A program made the position numbers and the translations under genes. Below, piece after piece: positions 26,337 to 51,652 of a stretch of 64,000 nt of DNA (positions are counted from its first letter, which is position 1; the number at the start of each line of letters is the position of its first letter). The stretch comes from an uncultured delta proteobacterium (GTDB lineage Bacteria; Desulfobacterota; Binatia; Binatales; Binataceae). The stretch lies in the NCBI GenBank assembly GCA_963805315.1, contig CAWDTQ010000014.1, positions 523,058 to 587,057 on the forward strand, written 5' to 3'. The notes under the pieces are model-generated. The model saw only the letters and a list, made by a program, of their open reading frames with translations. It was not told the origin of the DNA and did no database searches.

Positions 26337-26637
26337 TCGTTTCTCCACCTTCTGAATTTTGCCCACACCGCCACCCATGCCTGTCTGCGTTGCACGGATG
26401 TTGATGCCTCGGGCTGCCACGCGCGCGTGCTTGCGCGCTCCTGGCTGCCGCCAGCATCAGCACATTTTCACTTTTACCGAGATGCCTTCGATTCCAAGGC
26501 GGGGAGCGGAATGTGCTTGCCGTCGCGGCCTAGGACATTACAGCATACAGACGCCGCGCGCTACATCCGGTTGCATAAACATAGCAAGTCGCGCCGGTTA
26601 AACTTTTGTCAGATGTCCCCCAGGTAACACGGGAAAA

Positions 26638-27838
26638 TCAGCGCCACGCGCTCATCGCAAGACCGATTAGTCCACCGCCGAGCACCAGCCACGCGGAATT
26701 CACGCGATAACGAATCAGGACGAACGCGCTCAAGGCCGCGAGAATCATCGTCGTCACGTCCACGATCGCGGCGCGCGCAAGAAACAACGTCACCGCCGCC
26801 ATCAGCGCCCACGCGCCGACATTGACGCCGTCGAGAAACGCGCCGGCGAGCGGAGAGCGTCGCAGGTGTGGAATCAGCGGGCCACTGATCGAGACGAAGA
26901 AAAACGAAGGCAGGAAAATTCCAAGCGTAGCGACCACCGCGCCGCGAAATCCGCCGAGGAGGTAGCCGATGAAGGTCGCGGTCGTGAACACCGGGCCGGG
27001 AGTGATCTGGCCGACGGCGACGGCGTCGAGCAACTGCGCCTGGGTGAGCCATCGCAATCGATCGACGAGATCGGTGCGCAGGAACGCGAGCAATACGTAG
27101 CCGCTGCCGAACAGCACCGCGCCGACTTTCAGGAAGAATAGAAATAAAGTGGTGAGGCTGAACGGGACCGCCACCACGGCCGCCGCGAGCGCGGCTCCTT
27201 TTATGGCGGGCGCGCGCGTGGCGACCGTCGGGATCGCGGCGAGCGTCGCGCGTGCGGCGCCGCGATCTTCGACTGCGCGAATCGCGAGCATCACGACTCC
27301 GCCGCCGAGCAGCACTATCATGTCGTTGACGTCGAGGATGCGACGCGACCAACGCCACGATCGCGATTGCCGCGAGCAGCCGCGACTTGATCGCTGTGCG
27401 GCCGAGTCCCCACAACGCCTGCAACACGACCGCGATGATCACCGGCTTGACACCGTAGAGCAGACCTACCGCCTGCGGCATCGTGCCGAATCGCACGTAC
27501 ATCCACGCGATCGCCAGCACAATGGCGGCCGCCGGCAGAATGAAGCACGCGCCCGCGACGACGAGCCCCGCAAATCCCGCCCGCAGTTGCCCGATGTGAA
27601 TCGCCATCTCGGTCGAGTTGGGGCCGGGAATCAGGTTGCAGACGCCGAGCATGTCGAGGAACCGCTCATGCGTCATCCATCGCCGGCGGCGAACGACCTC
27701 GTCTTCCATCATCGCGATGTGCGCGGCGGGACCGCCCATCGCAAGCGTGCCGAGTCGAAGAAACAGCAGGGCCAGCTCCCACAGCGCATCGCGTCGCGTC
27801 GGGGGATTCTCGATGCTGTGAGAAATCGGTTCGCCCAT
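26638..27838 (-). CDS. chrA: Chromate transporter ChrA (two CHR domains), with a frameshift near 27325-27345
   Basis: The N-terminal half reads LLFLRLGTLAMGGPAAHIAMMEDEVV..RRWMTHERFLDMLGVCNLIPGPNSTEMAIHIG. The C-terminal half (ORF 26638..27321) reads FLKVGAVLFGSGYVLLAFL...GQITPGPVFTTATFIGY. Confidence 0.85.
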
Positions 27839-27922
27839 CTGGTAGTGTCCTAACTTGCCGGACTGTCCGAAGCGAGAGTCCCCGACACTCAATTCGCGCT
27901 ACCCTTCTGCTATCATCCGCAC

Positions 27923-30724
27923 ATGCCTCTGTCCTGGAATGAAATCCGCCATCGCGCAATTGCTTTTTCGAAGGAATGGACGGGCGCGAAAAGCGAAATA
28001 GCGGAAAAACAAACTTTTTGGAACGACTTCTTCAATGTCTTTGGCATCCGCCGTCGAGTTGTAGCGAGTTTTGAAGAACCGGTGAAGAAAATCTCTGGCG
28101 AGTACGGCTACATCGATTTGTTCTGGCCCGGGATCCTGCTCGTCGAGCACAAGAGTTTCGGGAAAGACCTCGGCAAGGCGGAGTCGCAGGCGTTCCGTTA
28201 CATCCAAGACCTCGCGCGCGAAGGACGCACAATTGAGGTTCCGCGCTACGTTATAGTCTCAGATTTTGCACGCATCGCGCTGCACGATCTTGAACCAGAA
28301 GCGAAAAACAAGCTGCAGCTGTCTACAGGGCGCCCCGTGGCCTCGCTGGAATTTCCCCTCGCCGACTTCCATCAACAGATACACCAGTTCGCATTCATCG
28401 CTGGCTACAAGCAGCACAAGTTTGCGGAACAAGACCCGATCAATATTGAGGCGGTCGAAATCATGGGCCGCCTCCACGACGCGCTTGAAGAGGGCGGCTA
28501 CTCAGGACATCAACTCGAACGTTTCCTTGTCCGCATCCTCTTTTGCCTCTTCGGCGAAGACACGGGCATCTTCGAACGTGAATCGTTCAAGCTCTACCTG
28601 CGGGACCGCACCGCTGAGGACGGCTCCGACCTCGGGTTGCACCTAGCGCGCTTGTTCGAAGTTCTGGATACGCCGCTAGAAAAGCGCCAGAAAAATCTCG
28701 ACGAATCTCTCGCCGCATTCGCCTATGTCAACGGTGAGCTTTTTGCCGAACATCTCGGCTTCGCCGACTTTAACAGCGACATGCGGAACGCCCTGCTCGC
28801 GTGCACTCACTTCGATTGGTCGCGCATCTCACCCGCGATTTTCGGATCGCTCTTTCAAGCTGTCATGGATCCGAAGGAACGGCGCCAAATAGGCGGCCAC
28901 TACACCAGTGAACGCGACATCCTGAAAGTCATCCGCTCGCTTTTCCTCGACGACTTGCAAGCCGAATTCGAGCGTGTCAAGAGCACCAAAGCCTGATTTA
29001 AGGCGCTTCCACAATAAGGTCGCTAAACTTCGCTTCCTCGACCCGGCGTGCGGCTGCGGCAATTTCCTCGTCATCACCTACCGCGAGCTGCGCTCGCTCG
29101 AAATCGAAATACTCAGGCTGCTTTATCCCGGCACGCAGCGCGAACTCGACATCCAGCATCTCTCGCTCATTGACGTGGACGCCTTCTACGGAATCGAGAT
29201 CAGCGAATGGCCGGCGCGCATCGCCGAAGTCGCCATGTGGCTAATGGACCACCAAATGAATATTCGACTCTCCGAGGCTTTCGGCCAATATTTCGTGCGC
29301 CTTCCGCTGAAGAAATCTCCCAAGATCGTCTGCGGCAATGCGCTCCGACTCGACTGGAAGAAGATCCTAGCGCCCAGCGCTTGCAGCTACGTGCTAGGCA
29401 ACCCACCGTTCGTGGGTGCTATGTACATGACTCCAGAGCAACGAGACGACATGCTTGGTGCATCGCACAACTTAAAAGGCGTGGGCGTCTTGGACTACGT
29501 GGGAGCGTGGTATTTCATCGCTTCTGAATACATAAAGGGAACGCAAGTCCGTGTTGGCTTCGTTTCTACAAACTCAATTTCGCAGGGCGAGCAAGTTGGC
29601 ATCCTCTGGTCTGAGCTTCTGTCGCGGCGAGTTAAAATCCTCTTCGCCCATCGAACCTTCACGTGGGAAAACGAAGCTCGCGGGAAGGCCCACGTTCACG
29701 TAGTCATCATCGGCTTCGGTGCTTTCGACGCAGGAGGCAAGCTGATTTACGATCACGATTCAAAAAGCGAGAAGGTCTCCGCGACGCTGGCCAGGAATAT
29801 CAGCCCTTATTTGGTGGAGGGAAGTGACTTCTGTCTCGCGAACCGCAGTATGCCTTTATGTGCAGTCCCCGAAATGCGATTCGGAAGTATGCCTCGGGAT
29901 GGAGGGCATTTCATACTCACAGATTCAGAGCGAGAGGAACTGCTGAAACTAGAACCAGAAGCCGCCAAATTCCTTCGCCCCTACACAGGGGCACAAGAGT
30001 TTATCAATGGTGGCTATAGGTGGTGTCTTTGGTTAGTGAATGCGAATCCGGCGGAACTGAAGAAACTTCCGTTGGTTCTTGACCACGTTGCCAACGTCAA
30101 AAAATTCCGTCTTGCAAGCAAAGCCGCTTCGACCAGGAAGTTTGCTGCAACTCCGACGCTGTTCTGCCAGATCGCGCAGCCCGACACCAAATACCTCTTA
30201 GTGCCAAGAGTTTCTTCGGAGAAGCGAAAGTACGTTCCGATCGGATTCGCGTCCCCGGACTTAATCGCGAACGATCAAACTTTGCTTATCCCCGATGCTG
30301 CGCGCTCTACCACTTCGCAGTCCTCTCTTCGGCAATGCATATGGCATGGGTTCGGCAACTCTGTGGCCGATTGAAGTCGGATTTCCGTTACTCAAAAGAC
30401 ATCGTGTACAACAACTACCCGTGGCCCGACGCGCCAAGTGTCAAGCAACGGGCGGCTGTGGAAGCTGCCGCCCAAGCGGTGCTGGATGCGCGCAAGGAAT
30501 TTCCCGGCGCCACGCTAGCAGAGCTTTATGACCCGTTGGCGATGCCGCCGACGCTCGTCAAAGCCCATGCCGAGTTGGACCGCGCCGTTGATCTCTGCTA
30601 CCGCCCGCAACCTTTCGAGAACGACCGCCAACGGGTCGAATACCTCTTGTTCCTCTACGAAAAACTGACCGCGCCTCTAATTGCCCCCTCCAAGAAAGGC
30701 CGACGAAAAACGCGCTCAATTTAG
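27923..30724 (+). CDS. MmeI-family type IIL restriction-modification enzyme (nuclease + N6-adenine methyltransferase + TRD in one polypeptide), broken into three ORFs by indels at ~28975-28995 and ~30298-30305
   Basis: The N-terminal nuclease motif is YIDLFWPGILLVEHKS (D...ExK). MTase motif I is FLDPACGCGNFL and motif IV is VLGNPPFVG. The conserved C-terminal region is AMHMAWVRQLCGRLKSDFRYSKDIVYNNYPWP. The three ORFs total ~930 aa. Confidence 0.85.
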
Positions 30725-30812
30725 GACACTACCGTCTATCCAACTCGGATCAGATGATCACGAATCGTCGTGGATTCCAACCGGCGCTTTGTCATTGGCG
30801 CAGGCGTGCGGT

Positions 30813-31715
30813 ATGGATCGAGCCACTATGCCGTCGCAACCGAAGAATCGAGTGGTCCGCGCATCGAACATGAATTTCACGGTACTCGAGATGGGCGAAT
30901 CAGAAGATCCGCTGGTGCTGTGCCTGCACGGCTTTCCCGACACCGCGCATTCGTTTCGCCATCAGATGCCCGCGCTGGCCGCGGCAGGATACCACTGCGT
31001 CGCCCCGTTCATGCGCGGCTACTCGCCAACCGAGCCCGCACCGGACGGCCGCTACGATTCTCCCGCGCTATCGGAGGACGCGCTCGCGCTGATAACCGCG
31101 CTGGGCTACAAGGACGCGATCGTGTTCGGGCACGATTGGGGCGCAGTCGCGGCATACGGCGCCGCGGCCGCGGCACCGGATCGCGTGACGAAGCTGGTCA
31201 CGGCCGCAGTCGGGTACGGCTCGAAATTTTTCGAGGCGCTCGTCACCAGCTACGCGCAGCAGCGCCGCTCCTGGTACATGTTTTTCTTCCAGACAAAAAT
31301 CGCCGAGGCGGCGGTGAGCCTCAACGACTTCGCGTTGCTGGAAAAGCTCTGGGCCGACTGGTCGCCCGGATGGAAATGGGCGGCCGAGGATATGGAAACG
31401 CTCAAGCGATGCTTTCGCGCCAAGGGCACGCTCGAGGCCGCGCTCGGCTACTATCGCGCAACGCTCGGTCCGGTGTTCAACATGCCGGTCGATCTGAAAG
31501 CTTTGGCGCCTGCGATGAACATACCGATCAACGTGCCCGCCCTGATGTTTCACGGGCGCGACGACGGATGCATCGGCAGCGAAACGCTCGACGGGATGGA
31601 GAAACTATTTCCGAAAGGATTGAAGATCGAGCTGGTACCGGGCGCCGGCCATTTCGTGCATCAGGAACGCCCCGATCACGTCAACGAACTGCTGCTGAAG
31701 TTCCTGAAGTCCTGA
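30813..31715 (+). CDS. Alpha/beta hydrolase (epoxide hydrolase-like)
   Basis: Contains PLVLCLHGFPDTAHSFRHQ, the nucleophile elbow FGHDWGA and C-terminal GAGHFVHQERPDHVNELLLKFL. The start is at 30813 or 30869. Confidence 0.85.
   Translation: MDRATMPSQPKNRVVRASNMNFTVLEMGESEDPLVLCLHGFPDTAHSFRHQMPALAAAGYHCVAPFMRGYSPTEPAPDGRYDSPALSEDALALITALGYKDAIVFGHDWGAVAAYGAAAAAPDRVTKLVTAAVGYGSKFFEALVTSYAQQRRSWYMFFFQTKIAEAAVSLNDFALLEKLWADWSPGWKWAAEDMETLKRCFRAKGTLEAALGYYRATLGPVFNMPVDLKALAPAMNIPINVPALMFHGRDDGCIGSETLDGMEKLFPKGLKIELVPGAGHFVHQERPDHVNELLLKFLKS
31677..31715 (+). repeat. Direct repeat A1 (3' end of the hydrolase gene), paired with 33773-33811
   Basis: cacgtcaacgaactgCtgctgaagttcctgaaGtcctga aligns with cacgtcaacgaactgAtgctgaagttcctgaaAtcctga. 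There are 2 mismatches in 39 nt by my hand alignment. Confidence 0.85.
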
Positions 31716-31794
31716 GCGCGACCCGGATTGAGCAGAGCCGCCGCGCGCAAGACAAGGCTGCGTCTTGTGTTGATATTTTGCACAGCCTTATACT

Positions 31795-32352
31795 ATGAAC
31801 GCCAGCGCGGCTCATCGCTTGACCCCGGAAATGTGCCGAGCCGGCCGCGCCCTTCTGGGTATCAGCCAAGCTCAGTTGGCGCGGGCGGCAGGCGTATCGA
31901 GGCTGACTATCGCTCATTTTGAGCGCGCGGCAAGCAAACCAATTCCGGTGAGTCTCGCGGCAATTCGCTCGGCACTTGAATCGTCCGGCATCGAACTGCT
32001 TCCGGGTGGCGCCGTACTACGCGAGCCCACCACCTCAGCGGTCCGGGGTCCCTCTCGGGAGGTTTCCGAGGTTCTACAAATTCTCCGGACTGCGGCGCCG
32101 CAGCTTCGGGAACTGGGCGTCAAACACGTCTCGCTTTTCGGCTCAACGGCGCGCGGCACTCAGCGCCCTGACAGTGACATCGATCTGCTACTCGACCTCG
32201 ACGAGCAACGAAAGATCGACCTGCTCGACTACGCGGGAATTGTTGCCGAGATCCAAAAATTGGTTCCGCAACGCGTGGATGCCGCCCTGCGCAGCACACT
32301 CAAACCTCACGTCGCTCGAAACGCTGTTCGAGACGAAATCAGTGTCTTCTAG
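31795..32352 (+). CDS. mntA: HTH(XRE-like)-fused minimal nucleotidyltransferase (MntA-like antitoxin)
   Basis: The N-terminal HTH is GISQAQLARAAGVSRLTIAHFE. The C-terminal NTase motif is LFGSTARGTQRPDSDIDLLLD. Confidence 0.8.
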   Translation: MNASAAHRLTPEMCRAGRALLGISQAQLARAAGVSRLTIAHFERAASKPIPVSLAAIRSALESSGIELLPGGAVLREPTTSAVRGPSREVSEVLQILRTAAPQLRELGVKHVSLFGSTARGTQRPDSDIDLLLDLDEQRKIDLLDYAGIVAEIQKLVPQRVDAALRSTLKPHVARNAVRDEISVF

Positions 32353-32693
32353 CGACCCCGAACAACGCTTGCGCGATATCATCGATAACATCACGCGGAT
32401 TCGATTCCTACGTGCAGGGCATCGCCGCCCCACAACTCGCCGCCGACCACAAGACGCAGGATGCCGTCGAACGATGCCTCGAGAAACGAATTTGCGAAGC
32501 TGCGCGAAAACTCGGCGATGCACTCGACGCCAAATATCCGGAAGCGGAATTTCCAAAACTCCGTCAACTCGGAAGCGTACTAAGACACGATTACGACGAT
32601 ATCGACACAGATATGCTCTGGCGCTCCGTGACAGAACGTCTGGATCCTCTCGAACACGCCTGTCGCAAAGAGTTAGGCGAGACTCTGAAATGA
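32342..32693 (+). CDS. hepT: HepT/DUF86-like toxin, with a frameshift near 32395-32410
   Basis: GTG 32342 overlaps the mntA stop. SSDPEQRLRDIIDNITRI (frame 1) continues as SYVQGIAAPQLAADHKTQDAVERCLE...LGSVLRHDYDDIDTDMLW (ORF 32412..32693). Confidence 0.7.
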
Positions 32694-32703
32694 GCTCAAA
32701 CTG

Positions 32704-32795
32704 TGATCACTGCCTTGAGCGCCGACGATGTAGCCTCGGAACATCGCCTGCGCGTTCATCGCGGGCCGGTATTCCGAAATCGAGCGCGAGCCGAG
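32704..32795 (-). repeat. Direct repeat A2: an orphan copy of the 3' end of the cupin gene, paired with 33809-33901
   Basis: About 92 nt align with 4 mismatches and 1 indel by my hand alignment. On the minus strand it encodes LGSRSISEYRPAMNAQAMFRGYIV, the same as the C-terminus of the intact cupin. Confidence 0.85.
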
Positions 32796-32920
32796 CTGAA
32801 GCCCACCGGCCAGTGGAGCAGTTCAAGTCCCAGCCCCATAGCCAGCAGCATCGCGGGATTGGCGCGGTCCCCGAAAGTTTCGTAGCAGAGCTCGATGCGG
32901 TTGGACTTTGCGGTCGGCAT
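32756..32920 (-). pseudogene. N-terminal remnant (~41 codons) of a second alpha/beta hydrolase, fused out of frame to the orphan cupin tail
   Basis: GGAGGTGA is followed by ATG 32920. MPTAKSNRIELCYETFGDRANPAMLLAMGLGLELLHWPVGF is a typical alpha/beta-hydrolase N-terminus. The reading frame then runs into repeat A2 at ~32796. Confidence 0.55.
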
Positions 32921-32922
32921 TG

Positions 32923-33762
32923 TCACCTCCATTCTTTTCCGGCCTTTGCCGCTCCTTCGGAGCCGCCCGGCGGGCGGCGTCCCCACACCGCCATGGTGAT
33001 GGCCGACATGGTGGCGAAGGCGGGGTCATTCAATCGTGCGAGCGCCTCCTCAACTTCCTCCGCCATGATCGCGCCCGACTTGACTGCGAAGCCCGCAGTC
33101 TTCTGGATCGCCAGACGCAGAGACGTGCAATGACGCCCGCCGCCCCGCATCATCTCGACCCTGCCCAGCGCTTCGACGTCAAGCAGGTCCTGCGCGCTCA
33201 CGTCGTCGAAAAGGCGCCGGCCATACTGGGAATGATCGGTCCTAGCAGACGGGCCCAGCACGCGGCGCGCTGCCACCACGAAGGCCGTCAGCACCTTTGT
33301 GACGATGTCGGACTGGCACCCGTGATGAAGGGTCACGAAGTCCGACGCTTCCACGAGCAGCCATCCGCCGGGCTTAAGCGCCGAGACCATGCGTGCGAGG
33401 GCTTTTCTACGGTCGGGAATCCACTCCAGCACCCAGCGCGCGTGCACGAGATCGAACGGGCCGCCTTCGGGAAGATCGTCGGCAACGATGTCGTGCCGAA
33501 GAAGTGCCAGGTTTGGGTACGACAGCCGCTCAAGGAAGGTCATTTCCAGGTCGGTCGCCATGACGTGGCCTTCATCTCCCACACGTTGACACAGCCACGC
33601 CGCGATCGACCCCGCGCCAGCGCCAACCTCCCAGCAACGCCATCCCGGGCCAACCCCGAGTGCCTCCAGGTGACGGATCGTTCCCGGGTCGAGCCCCTGC
33701 TCCAGGGCGGTCAGCCGCGCCCGCTCTTGGTCCCACGCTTGGTCGAATGGGTAGTTGCTCAT
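32923..33762 (-). CDS. Class I SAM-dependent methyltransferase
   Basis: Motif I is CWEVGAGAGSIAAWL, followed by DLVHARWVLEWI and LKPGGWLLVE. Confidence 0.85.
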   Translation of the reverse strand: MSNYPFDQAWDQERARLTALEQGLDPGTIRHLEALGVGPGWRCWEVGAGAGSIAAWLCQRVGDEGHVMATDLEMTFLERLSYPNLALLRHDIVADDLPEGGPFDLVHARWVLEWIPDRRKALARMVSALKPGGWLLVEASDFVTLHHGCQSDIVTKVLTAFVVAARRVLGPSARTDHSQYGRRLFDDVSAQDLLDVEALGRVEMMRGGGRHCTSLRLAIQKTAGFAVKSGAIMAEEVEEALARLNDPAFATMSAITMAVWGRRPPGGSEGAAKAGKEWR

Positions 33763-33772
33763 CGGCGCTCCT

Positions 33773-33811
33773 CACGTCAACGAACTGATGCTGAAGTTCC
33801 TGAAATCCTGA
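33773..33811 (+). repeat. Direct repeat B1: an orphan 3' tail (HVNELMLKFLKS*) of an alpha/beta hydrolase gene
   Basis: It aligns to 31677-31715. No hydrolase body lies upstream of it. Its TGA (33809-33811) abuts the cupin stop (TCA 33812-33814). Confidence 0.8.
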
Positions 33812-34186
33812 TCACCGACTTGAGCGCTCGACGATGTAGCCTCGGAACATCGCCTGGGCATTCATCGCGGGCCGGTATTCCGAAATCGAGCGCGAGCCGA
33901 GGCGGTCGTCGTTCCATACGGCGTGTGGCGTGCCGGGCGGAATGACCATCACACTCCCCCGCTCCAGGACGTACTCCTTTCCCGCCACGCGACATCGCAC
34001 GGTACCCTCGACGACTTCCAGGCGCTCCTCCTGATGCGTGTGAATGTGATCCCTGGGCGCGGCCGAGACTACGCGCGCGATATATTCGCATCGGAAGAGC
34101 TCGCCGGCGGTCTCCTCCGCCGACTTGAGGACGATCACTCGATCTTGTGTCGTTGTCGCGGGACGATCCGAAACCTGAGTCGCCAT
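33812..34186 (-). CDS. Cupin-domain protein (124 aa)
   Basis: Contains HIHTHQEERLEVVEGTVRCRVAGKEYVLERGSVMVIPPGTPHAVWN (cupin motifs 1 and 2). Confidence 0.8.
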   Translation of the reverse strand: MATQVSDRPATTTQDRVIVLKSAEETAGELFRCEYIARVVSAAPRDHIHTHQEERLEVVEGTVRCRVAGKEYVLERGSVMVIPPGTPHAVWNDDRLGSRSISEYRPAMNAQAMFRGYIVERSSR

Positions 34187-34350: not shown

Positions 34351-35034
34351 TCAGGACTTGCTGAGAAGGTGGCGGAAGAGGTCTTCCGCCGACTTGCCGT
34401 CCTCCTGCTCGAAGGCTTCGCTCAGGAACTCAACGTTGTTCATGCGGTCGACGCGAAAGAACCGGAAATCATCGCGCAGTTCGCACCACGACGCCGCGGT
34501 CCAGAACGGCGGATAGAACCAGAGGCTCAACGGACGCACCTTGCGACGCGTCTCGCCGCCTTTCTCGTCGCAGTAGCGGAACCGAACTTTCCGGCCACCG
34601 CGAATCGCGGCGCGCAACCGTCCAAGATCGAACGAGACTGGCACCCGGCGCACATCCTTCGGCGCCCATAACGATCGATCATCCAACATCCGCTGCAGAT
34701 GCGCCGGCAACACATTCTCGATCTTCGACAATGCCGCGTCGGCCGCGCGACCCAGCTCGGCGTCGCTCCAGTTCTGCACCATGCGGGCGCCGAAGACGAG
34801 CGCCTCGAGCTCGCTCTCGCTGAACATGAGCGGCGGCAGATCGTATCCCTTGCGCAGCGAGTAACCGATCCCGGCCGCACCCTCGATAGGGACCTTGCTC
34901 GCGATCAGGTCGCTGATGTCGCGGTAGATAGTGCGCTCGCTCACGTTGAACTGTTCCGCGAGCGAGCCGGCGGTGACCACGCGCCGTCGGCGCAGCCGCT
35001 GAATGATCTCGAACAAGCGATCGGCGCGACGCAT
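34351..35034 (-). CDS. YafY-family transcriptional regulator (HTH + WYL domain)
   Basis: Reads MRRADRLFEIIQRLRRRRVVTAGSLAEQFNVSERTIYRDISDL, then the WYL region VRFRYCDEKGGETRRKVRPLSLWF. ATG 35034 is preferred over the longer ORF from 35103. Confidence 0.85.
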   Translation of the reverse strand: MRRADRLFEIIQRLRRRRVVTAGSLAEQFNVSERTIYRDISDLIASKVPIEGAAGIGYSLRKGYDLPPLMFSESELEALVFGARMVQNWSDAELGRAADAALSKIENVLPAHLQRMLDDRSLWAPKDVRRVPVSFDLGRLRAAIRGGRKVRFRYCDEKGGETRRKVRPLSLWFYPPFWTAASWCELRDDFRFFRVDRMNNVEFLSEAFEQEDGKSAEDLFRHLLSKS

Positions 35035-35085
35035 GATAATTGAGCTTCTCTCACTGTCACCGCCTAACGGCAACCCCCACTCGGC

Positions 35086-35146
35086 ACTGGGTGCAGGGGT
35101 CACCCCTGCCCAAGGAAGTGTGAAACCCAGGCGGGTTTCACATTAG
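35086..35146 (+). repeat. Full copy of the two-hairpin REP/MITE-like intergenic repeat
   Basis: Hairpin 1 is gcagggg-tca-cccctgc within GGGTGCAGGGGTCACCC (35089-35105). A 13-nt spacer follows. Hairpin 2 is tgtgaaaccc-aggc-gggtttcaca (35119-35142). It aligns almost base for base with the reverse complement of 62178-62236. Confidence 0.8.
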
Positions 35147-51227: not shown

Positions 51228-51303
<76 letters not shown>

Positions 51304-51335
51304 ACCGTCGAAGCTTGCTTACGTAGCAAGATGTT

Positions 51336-51412
51336 TGGGGTGAGTGAAGGGATTTGAACCCTCGACCGCCGGAGCCACAATCCGATGCTCTGCCAACTGA
51401 GCTACACTCACC
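51336..51412 (-). tRNA. tRNA-His (anticodon GTG) with the extra 5' G(-1), CCA encoded
   Basis: The acceptor stem is G-GTGAGTG / CACTCAC-C. The anticodon loop is TTGTGGC. The T-loop is TTCAAAT. Confidence 0.9.
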
Positions 51413-51498
51413 ACCTCGATCTTTTCAAGCGACCCGTTTCAATCCACACGATCAATCCAGCCGGCGCGTCGAGCCGCCGCTATCAGAGTTCGCCTCCG

Positions 51499-51575
<77 letters not shown>

Positions 51576-51578
51576 GTA

Positions 51579-51652
51579 TCGGGGCGAGCCGATTTGAACG
51601 GCCGACCCCCTGCTCCCAAGGCAGGTGCGCTACCAAGCTGCGCTACGCCCCG
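51579..51652 (-). tRNA. tRNA-Pro (anticodon TGG), CCA not encoded
   Basis: The acceptor stem is CGGGGCG / CGCCCCG. The anticodon stem CCTGC/GCAGG carries the loop CTTGGGA. The T-loop is TTCAAAT. Only 3 nt separate it from tRNA-Arg. Confidence 0.9.

Follow-up and report, generated by a model that had tools for sequence, protein, structure and literature searches.

A variable slot between two convergent genes of Candidatus Binatus as the probable site of two unrelated gene-sized insertions

We analysed a 64-kb stretch of a metagenome contig from the uncultured soil bacterium Candidatus Binatus (phylum described in PMC8262859), hereafter called the window, in which an alpha/beta-hydrolase gene, hyd1, and a cupin gene transcribed towards it enclose a toxin-antitoxin (TA) pair of the HTH-MNT/HepT type, an intact methyltransferase (MT) gene and several orphan gene ends. 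This locus is probably a recombination scar in a variable slot that has received two unrelated inserts of ~1 kb, rather than a functioning system. It is of an ordinary kind, a scarred hotspot, with one unusual signature that recurs at other sites, namely an insert of ~1 kb that is free of mobile-element genes, lies behind a gene in the same orientation and is accompanied by a long duplication of the target.

Direct repeats of two gene ends

The left border of the slot is the intact hyd1 (30870-31715, plus strand; Pfam Abhydrolase_1, E 6e-28), which shows 86-92% identity across 22 related loci, and the right border is the intact cupin gene, a core gene (33812-34186, minus strand; Pfam Cupin_2). 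The 3' ends of both genes are present twice. The real 3' end of hyd1 (31676-31715, plus strand) recurs as an orphan hyd1 tail at 33772-33811 on the same strand, with 38 of 40 nt identical. The last 90 nt of the intact cupin gene (33812-33901, minus strand), taken together with the adjoining TGA, recur at 32704-32795, where 88 of 92 nt are identical to 33809-33901 (four mismatches, plus one 1-nt indel); the cupin part of this second copy, an orphan cupin tail at 32707-32795 on the minus strand, matches cupin residues 95-119 in tblastn. On the right-hand side the TGA of the orphan hyd1 tail abuts TCA, the cupin stop on the opposite strand, with zero spacer (tga|tca, 33809-33814), and the orphan hyd1 tail and the cupin tail together appear to preserve the intact ancestral junction between the two genes. 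A preliminary description of the locus had drawn attention to these direct repeats and to the two convergent stops without a spacer, and both are real: BLASTN of 31600-34000 against the whole window returned the hyd1-tail and cupin-tail repeats as the sole other matches. An Rfam search of the whole window found only four tRNAs near 51 kb, with no hit of any kind in the region of the repeats.

The slot between hyd1 and cupin varies among related genomes

Relatives of the cupin gene were found in 36 loci, all of them from Candidatus Binatus or Binataceae metagenome-assembled genomes (MAGs), mostly from soil. hyd1 is convergent on the cupin gene in 22 of the 36, and the content between the two stops varies. 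The slot is empty, with a zero-spacer stop|stop junction, in L001, L006 and L030, and is also empty in L004, where the spacer is 1-4 nt; spacers of 75-300 nt occur in L013, L015, L019 and L026. An alpha-amylase-family gene occupies the slot in ten loci, eight of which have hyd1 (L005, L008, L009, L012, L014, L028, L035 and L036) and two of which are L002 and L003, and a remnant of it is present in L016. The MNT/HepT cassette is found in L007, L011 and L018 and, together with the amylase-family gene, in L036; L016 and L020 contain slot remnants that include those of the cassette, and L010 contains a DUF2157-like open reading frame (ORF). At the loci with the amylase-family gene, a few nt of the cupin tail remain 3' of the hyd1 stop and the cupin gene lacks its last three codons, which argues that the abutting TGA|TCA junction is the ancestral state. 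The proposal that the unsplit junction in the window corresponds to the ancestral empty site is therefore supported, with L001, L006 and L030 as zero-spacer examples and L004 as one with 1-4 nt.

Sister pairs with different slot content were recovered consistently in the left-flank and right-flank trees: L006 (empty) and L011 (TA cassette), L005 (amylase-family gene) and L036 (TA cassette plus amylase-family gene), and L008 and L010. In Candidatus Binatus, hyd1 and cupin are convergent core genes, and the slot that they border is variable. Clean presence or absence between sister species is the outcome that would be expected if the slot is replaced by homologous recombination through these flanking core genes. 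In this respect the slot resembles the chromosomal hotspots ('islets') with homologous turnover in their flanks, since the core genes are kept in more than 20 species whereas the content differs between sister species, and the cargo is also similar, including as it does a TA module and, next door, a restriction-modification gene. Unlike such hotspots, the slot is tiny (zero spacer when empty), its inserts are single units of ~1 kb and it contains no integrase or tRNA gene.

The TA cassette in the window and in other species

The insert on the hyd1 side is the TA cassette. A terminator-like hairpin 3' of hyd1 (31745-31770, plus strand) lies just 5' of the TA promoter/operator (TTGATATTTTGCACAGCCTTATAC; 31771-31794, plus strand), which is 11 nt shorter than that of relatives. 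This is followed on the same strand by the HTH-MNT antitoxin gene (31795-32352), in which an Xre-type HTH is fused to a nucleotidyltransferase (Pfam HTH_3 and NTP_transf_2), and by the HepT toxin gene (32342-32693; HepT-like in Pfam). The conserved unit begins with the promoter/operator (TTGATATTTTGTATA...TATACA) and ends shortly 5' of the HepT stop; TTGATATTTTGTATA..TATACA is kept in seven cassettes across four different contexts. Three contexts without hyd1 or cupin (L054-L056) also carry the cassette, with MNT identity of 72-76%. The TA pair is thus a self-contained cassette, as had been suggested, with its own promoter and with an existence in three unrelated contexts.

The order of the two genes, MNT and then HepT, co-directional and with ORFs overlapping by 11 nt, is like that of the HEPN/MNT (HepT-MntA) type VII TA systems, in which the toxin is an RNase that is neutralised through AMPylation by the antitoxin. 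The likeness extends to the Pfam matches to NTP_transf_2 (E 3e-14) and HepT-like, and to a nucleotidyltransferase motif in MNT, GSx2RGx5SDxD (GSTARGTQRPDSDID), that fits G[GS]x9-13Dx[DE]. At the HEPN Rx4-6H motif all eight homologs read LRQLGSVLRHDY (LGSVLRHDY), with the His and the Tyr present and Gly at the canonical Arg position. Unlike the type VII systems, the antitoxin has a fused N-terminal Xre-type HTH, and the toxin reading frame is broken in the window by a +1 frameshift at ~32404 when compared with L036 and two metagenome contigs.

The TA pair in the window looks to be decaying. Relative to the cassette of L036, its closest relative (92% identity), it has lost 11 nt of the promoter/operator at 31793 and has one extra nt at 32404 that splits HepT and three extra nt at 32484 within HepT. 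Among metagenome contigs of relatives, two are without the +1 and three are without the +3, and with one T removed HepT aligns end to end with seven homologs. A sequencing error may be the source of the +1 at 32404, since the ChrA-like and MmeI-like genes in the window are also frameshifted; the 11-nt and 3-nt changes are, in our judgement, not typical read errors.

The preliminary description had proposed that the TA module was inserted precisely between the two convergent stops, a 3-bp duplication being one of the mechanisms that it considered. A recent, precise insertion in this genome with a 3-bp duplication of TGA is not supported by the cassettes in the same slot of other loci (L007, L011, L018 and L036, with remnants in L016 and L020). 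The slot holds the cassette in at least six other species at 75-92% identity, and the presence of the TA pair in the same slot of several species implies that it is an old occupant and not a recent insertion in this genome. Furthermore, a second copy of the hyd1 tail is located between the HepT stop and the cupin stop in L007, L016 and L018, where local alignment to each genome's own hyd1 gives 32 nt (29/32), 28 nt and 21 nt, respectively, indicating that the primary TA event duplicated the hyd1 tail and did not place the cassette exactly between the stops. L011 and L020 have lost this copy, and in both the stops of HepT and cupin adjoin. The extra TGA beside HepT in the window is possibly what remains of a duplicated hyd1 tail, judging from the alignment of the 13 nt that end in it (32694-32706, plus strand), which match the end of the orphan hyd1 tail at 9 of 12 positions. 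The view that this is a clear hyd1-tail remnant was rejected, the local alignment not being significant alone.

We consider it unlikely that the junction was duplicated first and that the cassette was then inserted here exactly between the stops of the left copy with a 3-bp TGA duplication. TGA does occur on both sides of the cassette, the HepT and cupin stops abut in L011 and L020, and the sister species L006 and L011 differ by the cassette only, but allele replacement via the flanking core genes would also give this sister presence and absence. Moreover, the cassette is old by its distribution over the same slot in other species, the hyd1-tail copies of L007, L016 and L018 are of 21-43 nt, not 3 nt, and there is no TGA duplication in the flanks of the cassette in its three other contexts (L054-L056), which we inspected. 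Thus, the empty site, the self-contained cassette and the lack of mobile-element genes stand from the original interpretation, whereas the recent stop-precise insertion of the TA pair does not. A TA module that appears 'precisely inserted' can arise from target duplication, erosion and homologous replacement, and site-specific insertion is not required.

A promoterless methyltransferase fragment behind the cupin gene

The insert on the cupin side, read on the minus strand, consists of the native leader and ribosome-binding site (RBS) of an MT gene (GGAGCGCCG; 33763-33771) at its 5' end, an intact gene for an S-adenosylmethionine-dependent MT of 279 aa (32923-33762; Pfam Methyltransf_11/12/25) and, at its 3' end, the first 41 codons of a second alpha/beta-hydrolase, hydrolase 2 (32796-32920; codons 32920-32798). 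Close relatives of the MT (82-96% identity) are located in another locus, seen in variously deleted forms, whose native context is a divergent GntR/aminotransferase-type regulator followed by the MT, hydrolase 2, DUF2461 and a second MT paralog; the MT of the window is 95-96% identical to copies beside the GntR/aminotransferase regulator. Homology of the window to the native MT loci begins at 33766-33773, 4-11 nt 5' of the MT start, and ends between 32974 and 32790. These limits imply that 32796-33771 is a 976-nt promoterless fragment of the native MT locus, comprising the whole MT and 41 codons of hydrolase 2.

The truncation of the second hydrolase after ~41 codons, already noted in the preliminary description, is confirmed by the match of this remnant to the N-terminus of a full-length Abhydrolase_1 protein encoded beside a related MT in L038 (17/41 identical, E 3e-10). 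The remnant continues, out of frame, into the orphan cupin tail; the resulting chimeric ORF, P0001, was found on this contig only. No second copy of the MT or of hydrolase 2 was detected in the window by BLASTN, and on this ground we rejected an origin by deletion after a large tandem duplication spanning a native MT locus nearby. Exact-protein look-ups of the cupin and the MT returned no matches.

The minus strand carries, all in one direction, a WYL regulator, the cupin gene, 49 nt, the MT with its own RBS and the hydrolase-2 remnant. As no terminator is predicted between cupin and MT and both have the same orientation, read-through of the MT from the cupin transcript is plausible. The MT gene appears to be under purifying selection, with a ratio of nonsynonymous to synonymous substitution rates (dN/dS) of 0.26-0.28 against the native copies.

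Several observations concern the native locus itself. Hydrolase 2 is cut after 6-8 codons in the regulator-linked native loci L139-L141, and therefore the relocated fragments keep more of hydrolase 2 than these loci do; in L139 the truncated hydrolase 2 is followed by a gene annotated as AbiEi_3 (antitoxin-like). A 76-nt MT 5' remnant in L038 was tried as an insertion with target duplication and rejected, being the leftover of the first of two tandem MT paralogs. The 1,849-bp metagenome contig L046, noted together with the protein P0147, has an order like a circular permutation, with the 3' part of the MT, a C-terminal remnant of hydrolase 2, DUF2461 and the 5' part of the MT, and its ends share ~21 nt. 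In L046 the native MT locus could be arranged in tandem or be present as an excised circle.

Target duplications accompany relocated fragments at other sites

Read in the direction of the MT, the locus consists of the intact cupin tail with 40 nt of the hyd1 tail (33901-33772), the fragment, and the orphan cupin tail with at least the TGA of the hyd1 tail (32795-32704). On this comparison, both orphan tails appear to be a target duplication of 92-132 nt that flanks the MT fragment, the orphan hyd1 tail lying in the upstream copy and the orphan cupin tail in the downstream copy. The two gene remnants had previously been attributed to a duplication/deletion; the remnants are genuine, but the event is better described as the insertion of one fragment of ~0.98 kb, the orphan tails being the duplicated target.

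Near-identical MT fragments are present behind other genes, at two further sites in different Candidatus Binatus lineages. In L041, and likewise in an independent assembly, L138, the MT fragment extends as far as codon 31 of hydrolase 2; it is located behind an Lhr-like helicase gene and is flanked by a 26-nt direct repeat, a single copy of which is present at that site in seven related genomes. We rejected the idea that this repeat belongs to a dispersed family, as it is absent elsewhere in 57 loci and the relatives are single-copy at the site. In L142 and L146, which derive from two samples, an MT fragment that extends from -37 to 16 codons before the MT stop is located behind a NicO-family gene and is flanked by a 103-nt duplication (95/103 and 99/103 identical) composed of the last ~90 nt of the NicO-family gene and a further 13 nt. 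A short contig, L057, carries the MT and ~42 codons of hydrolase 2 joined to unrelated sequence. The relocated MT copies form one cluster in the MT tree and are hybrid, with the leader and the first ~50 nt like the second paralog and the body like the first.

Four events at three sites are thus available for comparison: the TA cassette that follows hyd1, and three independent insertions of MT fragments, downstream of the cupin gene, the Lhr-like gene and the NicO-family gene. Common to all four is a topology in which an intact upstream gene tail is followed by a co-oriented insert of 0.8-1.0 kb and then by an orphan copy of the tail of 21-132 nt. None of the four inserts has mobile-element genes or terminal repeats, and microhomology is 0-2 nt at the joints for which both parents are known.

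Comparison with known routes of insertion

As with transposons and insertion sequences, the inserts are flanked by direct target duplications. Unlike transposons, however, the length of the duplication varies five-fold and the ends of the insert differ between events; for the same fragment type the duplications are of 26, 103 and 92-132 nt, and not short and fixed as for insertion sequences. No inverted repeat pairs the ends of 31716-32703 or of 32796-33771. Transposase genes are absent from the inserts, which encode only MNT/HepT, or the MT with the hydrolase-2 remnant (elsewhere in the 64 kb, genes were not scanned one by one), in agreement with the preliminary description, which saw no integrase, transposase or terminal inverted repeats. 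The MT fragment differs from an integron cassette in that its 3' end is hydrolase coding sequence, and no palindrome of the attC type is present at either cassette end. Integrase-mediated islands at gene 3' ends have in common with this locus the direct repeats of gene ends, but no integrase is encoded within the inserts, and the MT fragment is without an attachment-site copy of its own, because three unrelated target sequences flank the same fragment at three sites. A literature search on TA cassettes with long target duplications found nothing specific.

We infer that insertion occurred by transposase-independent illegitimate recombination. The inserts are like those of end-joining capture at double-strand breaks, or of double illegitimate recombination, in that genomic fragments from elsewhere are joined with 0-2 nt of microhomology and without recombination sites. 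In Streptomyces, experiments have shown that end-joining repair of breaks captures genomic DNA in lengths from 30 bp to 18.8 kb (PMC5869714). The events described here are unlike such capture in that every one has a target duplication of 26-132 nt, the insert size is confined to 0.8-1.0 kb and the same fragment is found at three or more sites.

A proposed history and the alternatives to it

In the history that we propose, hyd1 and cupin would originally have stood stop to stop, as TGA|TCA. One insert would be the TA cassette, which has its own promoter and, where best preserved, a duplicated hyd1 tail at its flank. The other would be the promoterless MT fragment, from 11 nt 5' of the MT to codon 41 of hydrolase 2, placed directly behind the cupin gene in the same orientation, and its insertion would have duplicated 92-132 nt of the target around the junction. 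Two orders of events can be envisaged. The fragment may have entered a TA-bearing allele, the hyd1-tail copy beside HepT being mostly deleted later, or it may have entered an empty allele with a 132-nt duplication, the TA allele being imported later by homologous recombination with hyd1 and the orphan cupin tail as arms. The orphan cupin tail has states that are common in relatives, and the functional cupin tail has two synonymous derived changes; the second order would also explain the 5% divergence between the repeat copies. As to mechanism, end joining might capture a DNA fragment at a staggered break; alternatively, a template switch during replication might return upstream of its point of departure. 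Selection would then have kept only those fragments that hold a whole gene, and allele exchange by homologous recombination would have followed. Read in this way, a confusing locus becomes a legible history of a stop|stop junction, a TA cassette, a captured MT fragment and allele exchange between lineages.

Several points weigh against this history. To our knowledge, a staggered break with overhangs of 26-132 nt is not a standard intermediate. L057 hints at shared AGCTCGGC, which bears on the joint at 32795/32796. The ends of the five MT fragments fall within ~80 nt (5') and ~185 nt (3'), and could be the ends of a defined element, although such clustering can be explained by a size limit of ~1 kb and selection for an intact expressible gene. 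Finally, none of the public sequencing runs contains this strain; the best includes only 23% of the sampled words, and neither joint is spanned by a contig.

More speculatively, the TA cassette and the MT fragment might be two products of an undescribed transposase-independent process in Candidatus Binatus that moves fragments of 0.8-1.0 kb to the 3' ends of genes, co-oriented and with long, variable target duplications (26-132 nt), and that is maybe primed from a transcript or a nascent DNA strand. We put this forward tentatively, as a conjecture that has some small chance of being correct. If the signature is common genome-wide, it would indicate that genes in an uncultured soil phylum are relocated by a distinct route, and such a route, if real, could put promoterless genes behind active ones.

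Campbell-type integration, whereby a small circle that carried a copy of the junction and the MT fragment entered by a single homologous crossover in the cupin tail, predicts the exact order hyd1-TA-cupin tail-fragment-hyd1 tail-cupin. The tandem paralogs of the native MT locus could excise circles, L046 resembles a circular permutation and the relocated MT is a hybrid of two paralogs. This model, however, requires a pre-formed circle in which the target is already present, and each of the three sites would need its own circle, while the 26-nt repeat of L041 is at what is established as the lower limit for homologous recombination; we regard it as improbable.

RNA-mediated or otherwise dedicated mobility, in which the MT fragments would be copies of a transcript (or of a nick-defined strand) made by target-primed synthesis, would be expected to yield a defined 5' end together with variable 3' ends and duplications. 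The absence of a promoter from the MT fragments, the start of the L142 fragment at -37 within the native intergenic leader, the spread of 3' ends over 185 nt, the range of duplication lengths (26, 103 and 92-132 nt) and the co-orientation of all inserts with the upstream gene are consistent with such copying. Yet the 5' ends are not uniform (at least -66, -37, -13/-11, -11 and +10), the TA cassette has its own promoter and the clustered ends are explained by selection that keeps the gene intact under a size limit of 1 kb. No reverse transcriptase turned up, although no search was aimed at one. We therefore consider this explanation very improbable.

It is hardly credible that the locus is an assembly artefact, composed of a chimera of strains with and without the TA cassette and a mis-joined MT locus: although the source is a 941-kb metagenome contig, the relatives are long-read MAGs in which frameshifts are frequent, the ChrA-like and MmeI-like genes of the window are frameshifted and public runs provide no read support, neither joint is in a repeat that would confuse assembly, a chimera would require two mis-joins 1 kb apart that put an intact gene with its RBS right behind the cupin gene, the 5% divergence of the repeat copies fits age and not collapse, and four independent assemblies show this architecture at two further sites.

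Neighbouring features

The HTH-WYL regulator upstream of the cupin gene (34351-35103, minus strand; Pfam HTH_11 and WYL) is a conserved neighbour by synteny. Directly upstream of hyd1, a 2,893-bp insertion (27841-30733) that is absent from ~20 relatives is filled by an MmeI-family restriction-modification gene (Pfam MmeI_N, MmeI_hel, MmeI_Mtase, MmeI_TRD and MmeI_C), split into three frames (27923-28996, 28974-30374 and 30335-30724). Inverted repeats of 17 nt (27841-27857 and 30717-30733, 16/17) delimit the insertion, possibly with a target duplication of ~8 nt, and there is no transposase inside it. Its appearance is that of a non-autonomous inverted-repeat element with a defence gene as cargo. 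A conserved gene encoding a ChrA-like transporter (26609-27892, minus strand) is split into two frames, and the frameshifts in the ChrA-like, MmeI-like and HepT genes together raise the question of indel errors in the assembly. The tRNA genes found by Rfam form a cluster of four at 51231-51652 on the minus strand.

A double-hairpin element (GGTGCAGGGGTCACCCCTGCC...GTGAAACCCAGGCGGGTTTCAC) is located at 35088-35141, between the WYL regulator and a large membrane protein, and had no match in Rfam. Extra copies of it are present in the hyd1/cupin slot of L002, L003, L013 and L036, beside the cupin stop, and the element looks like a REP-like intergenic repeat.

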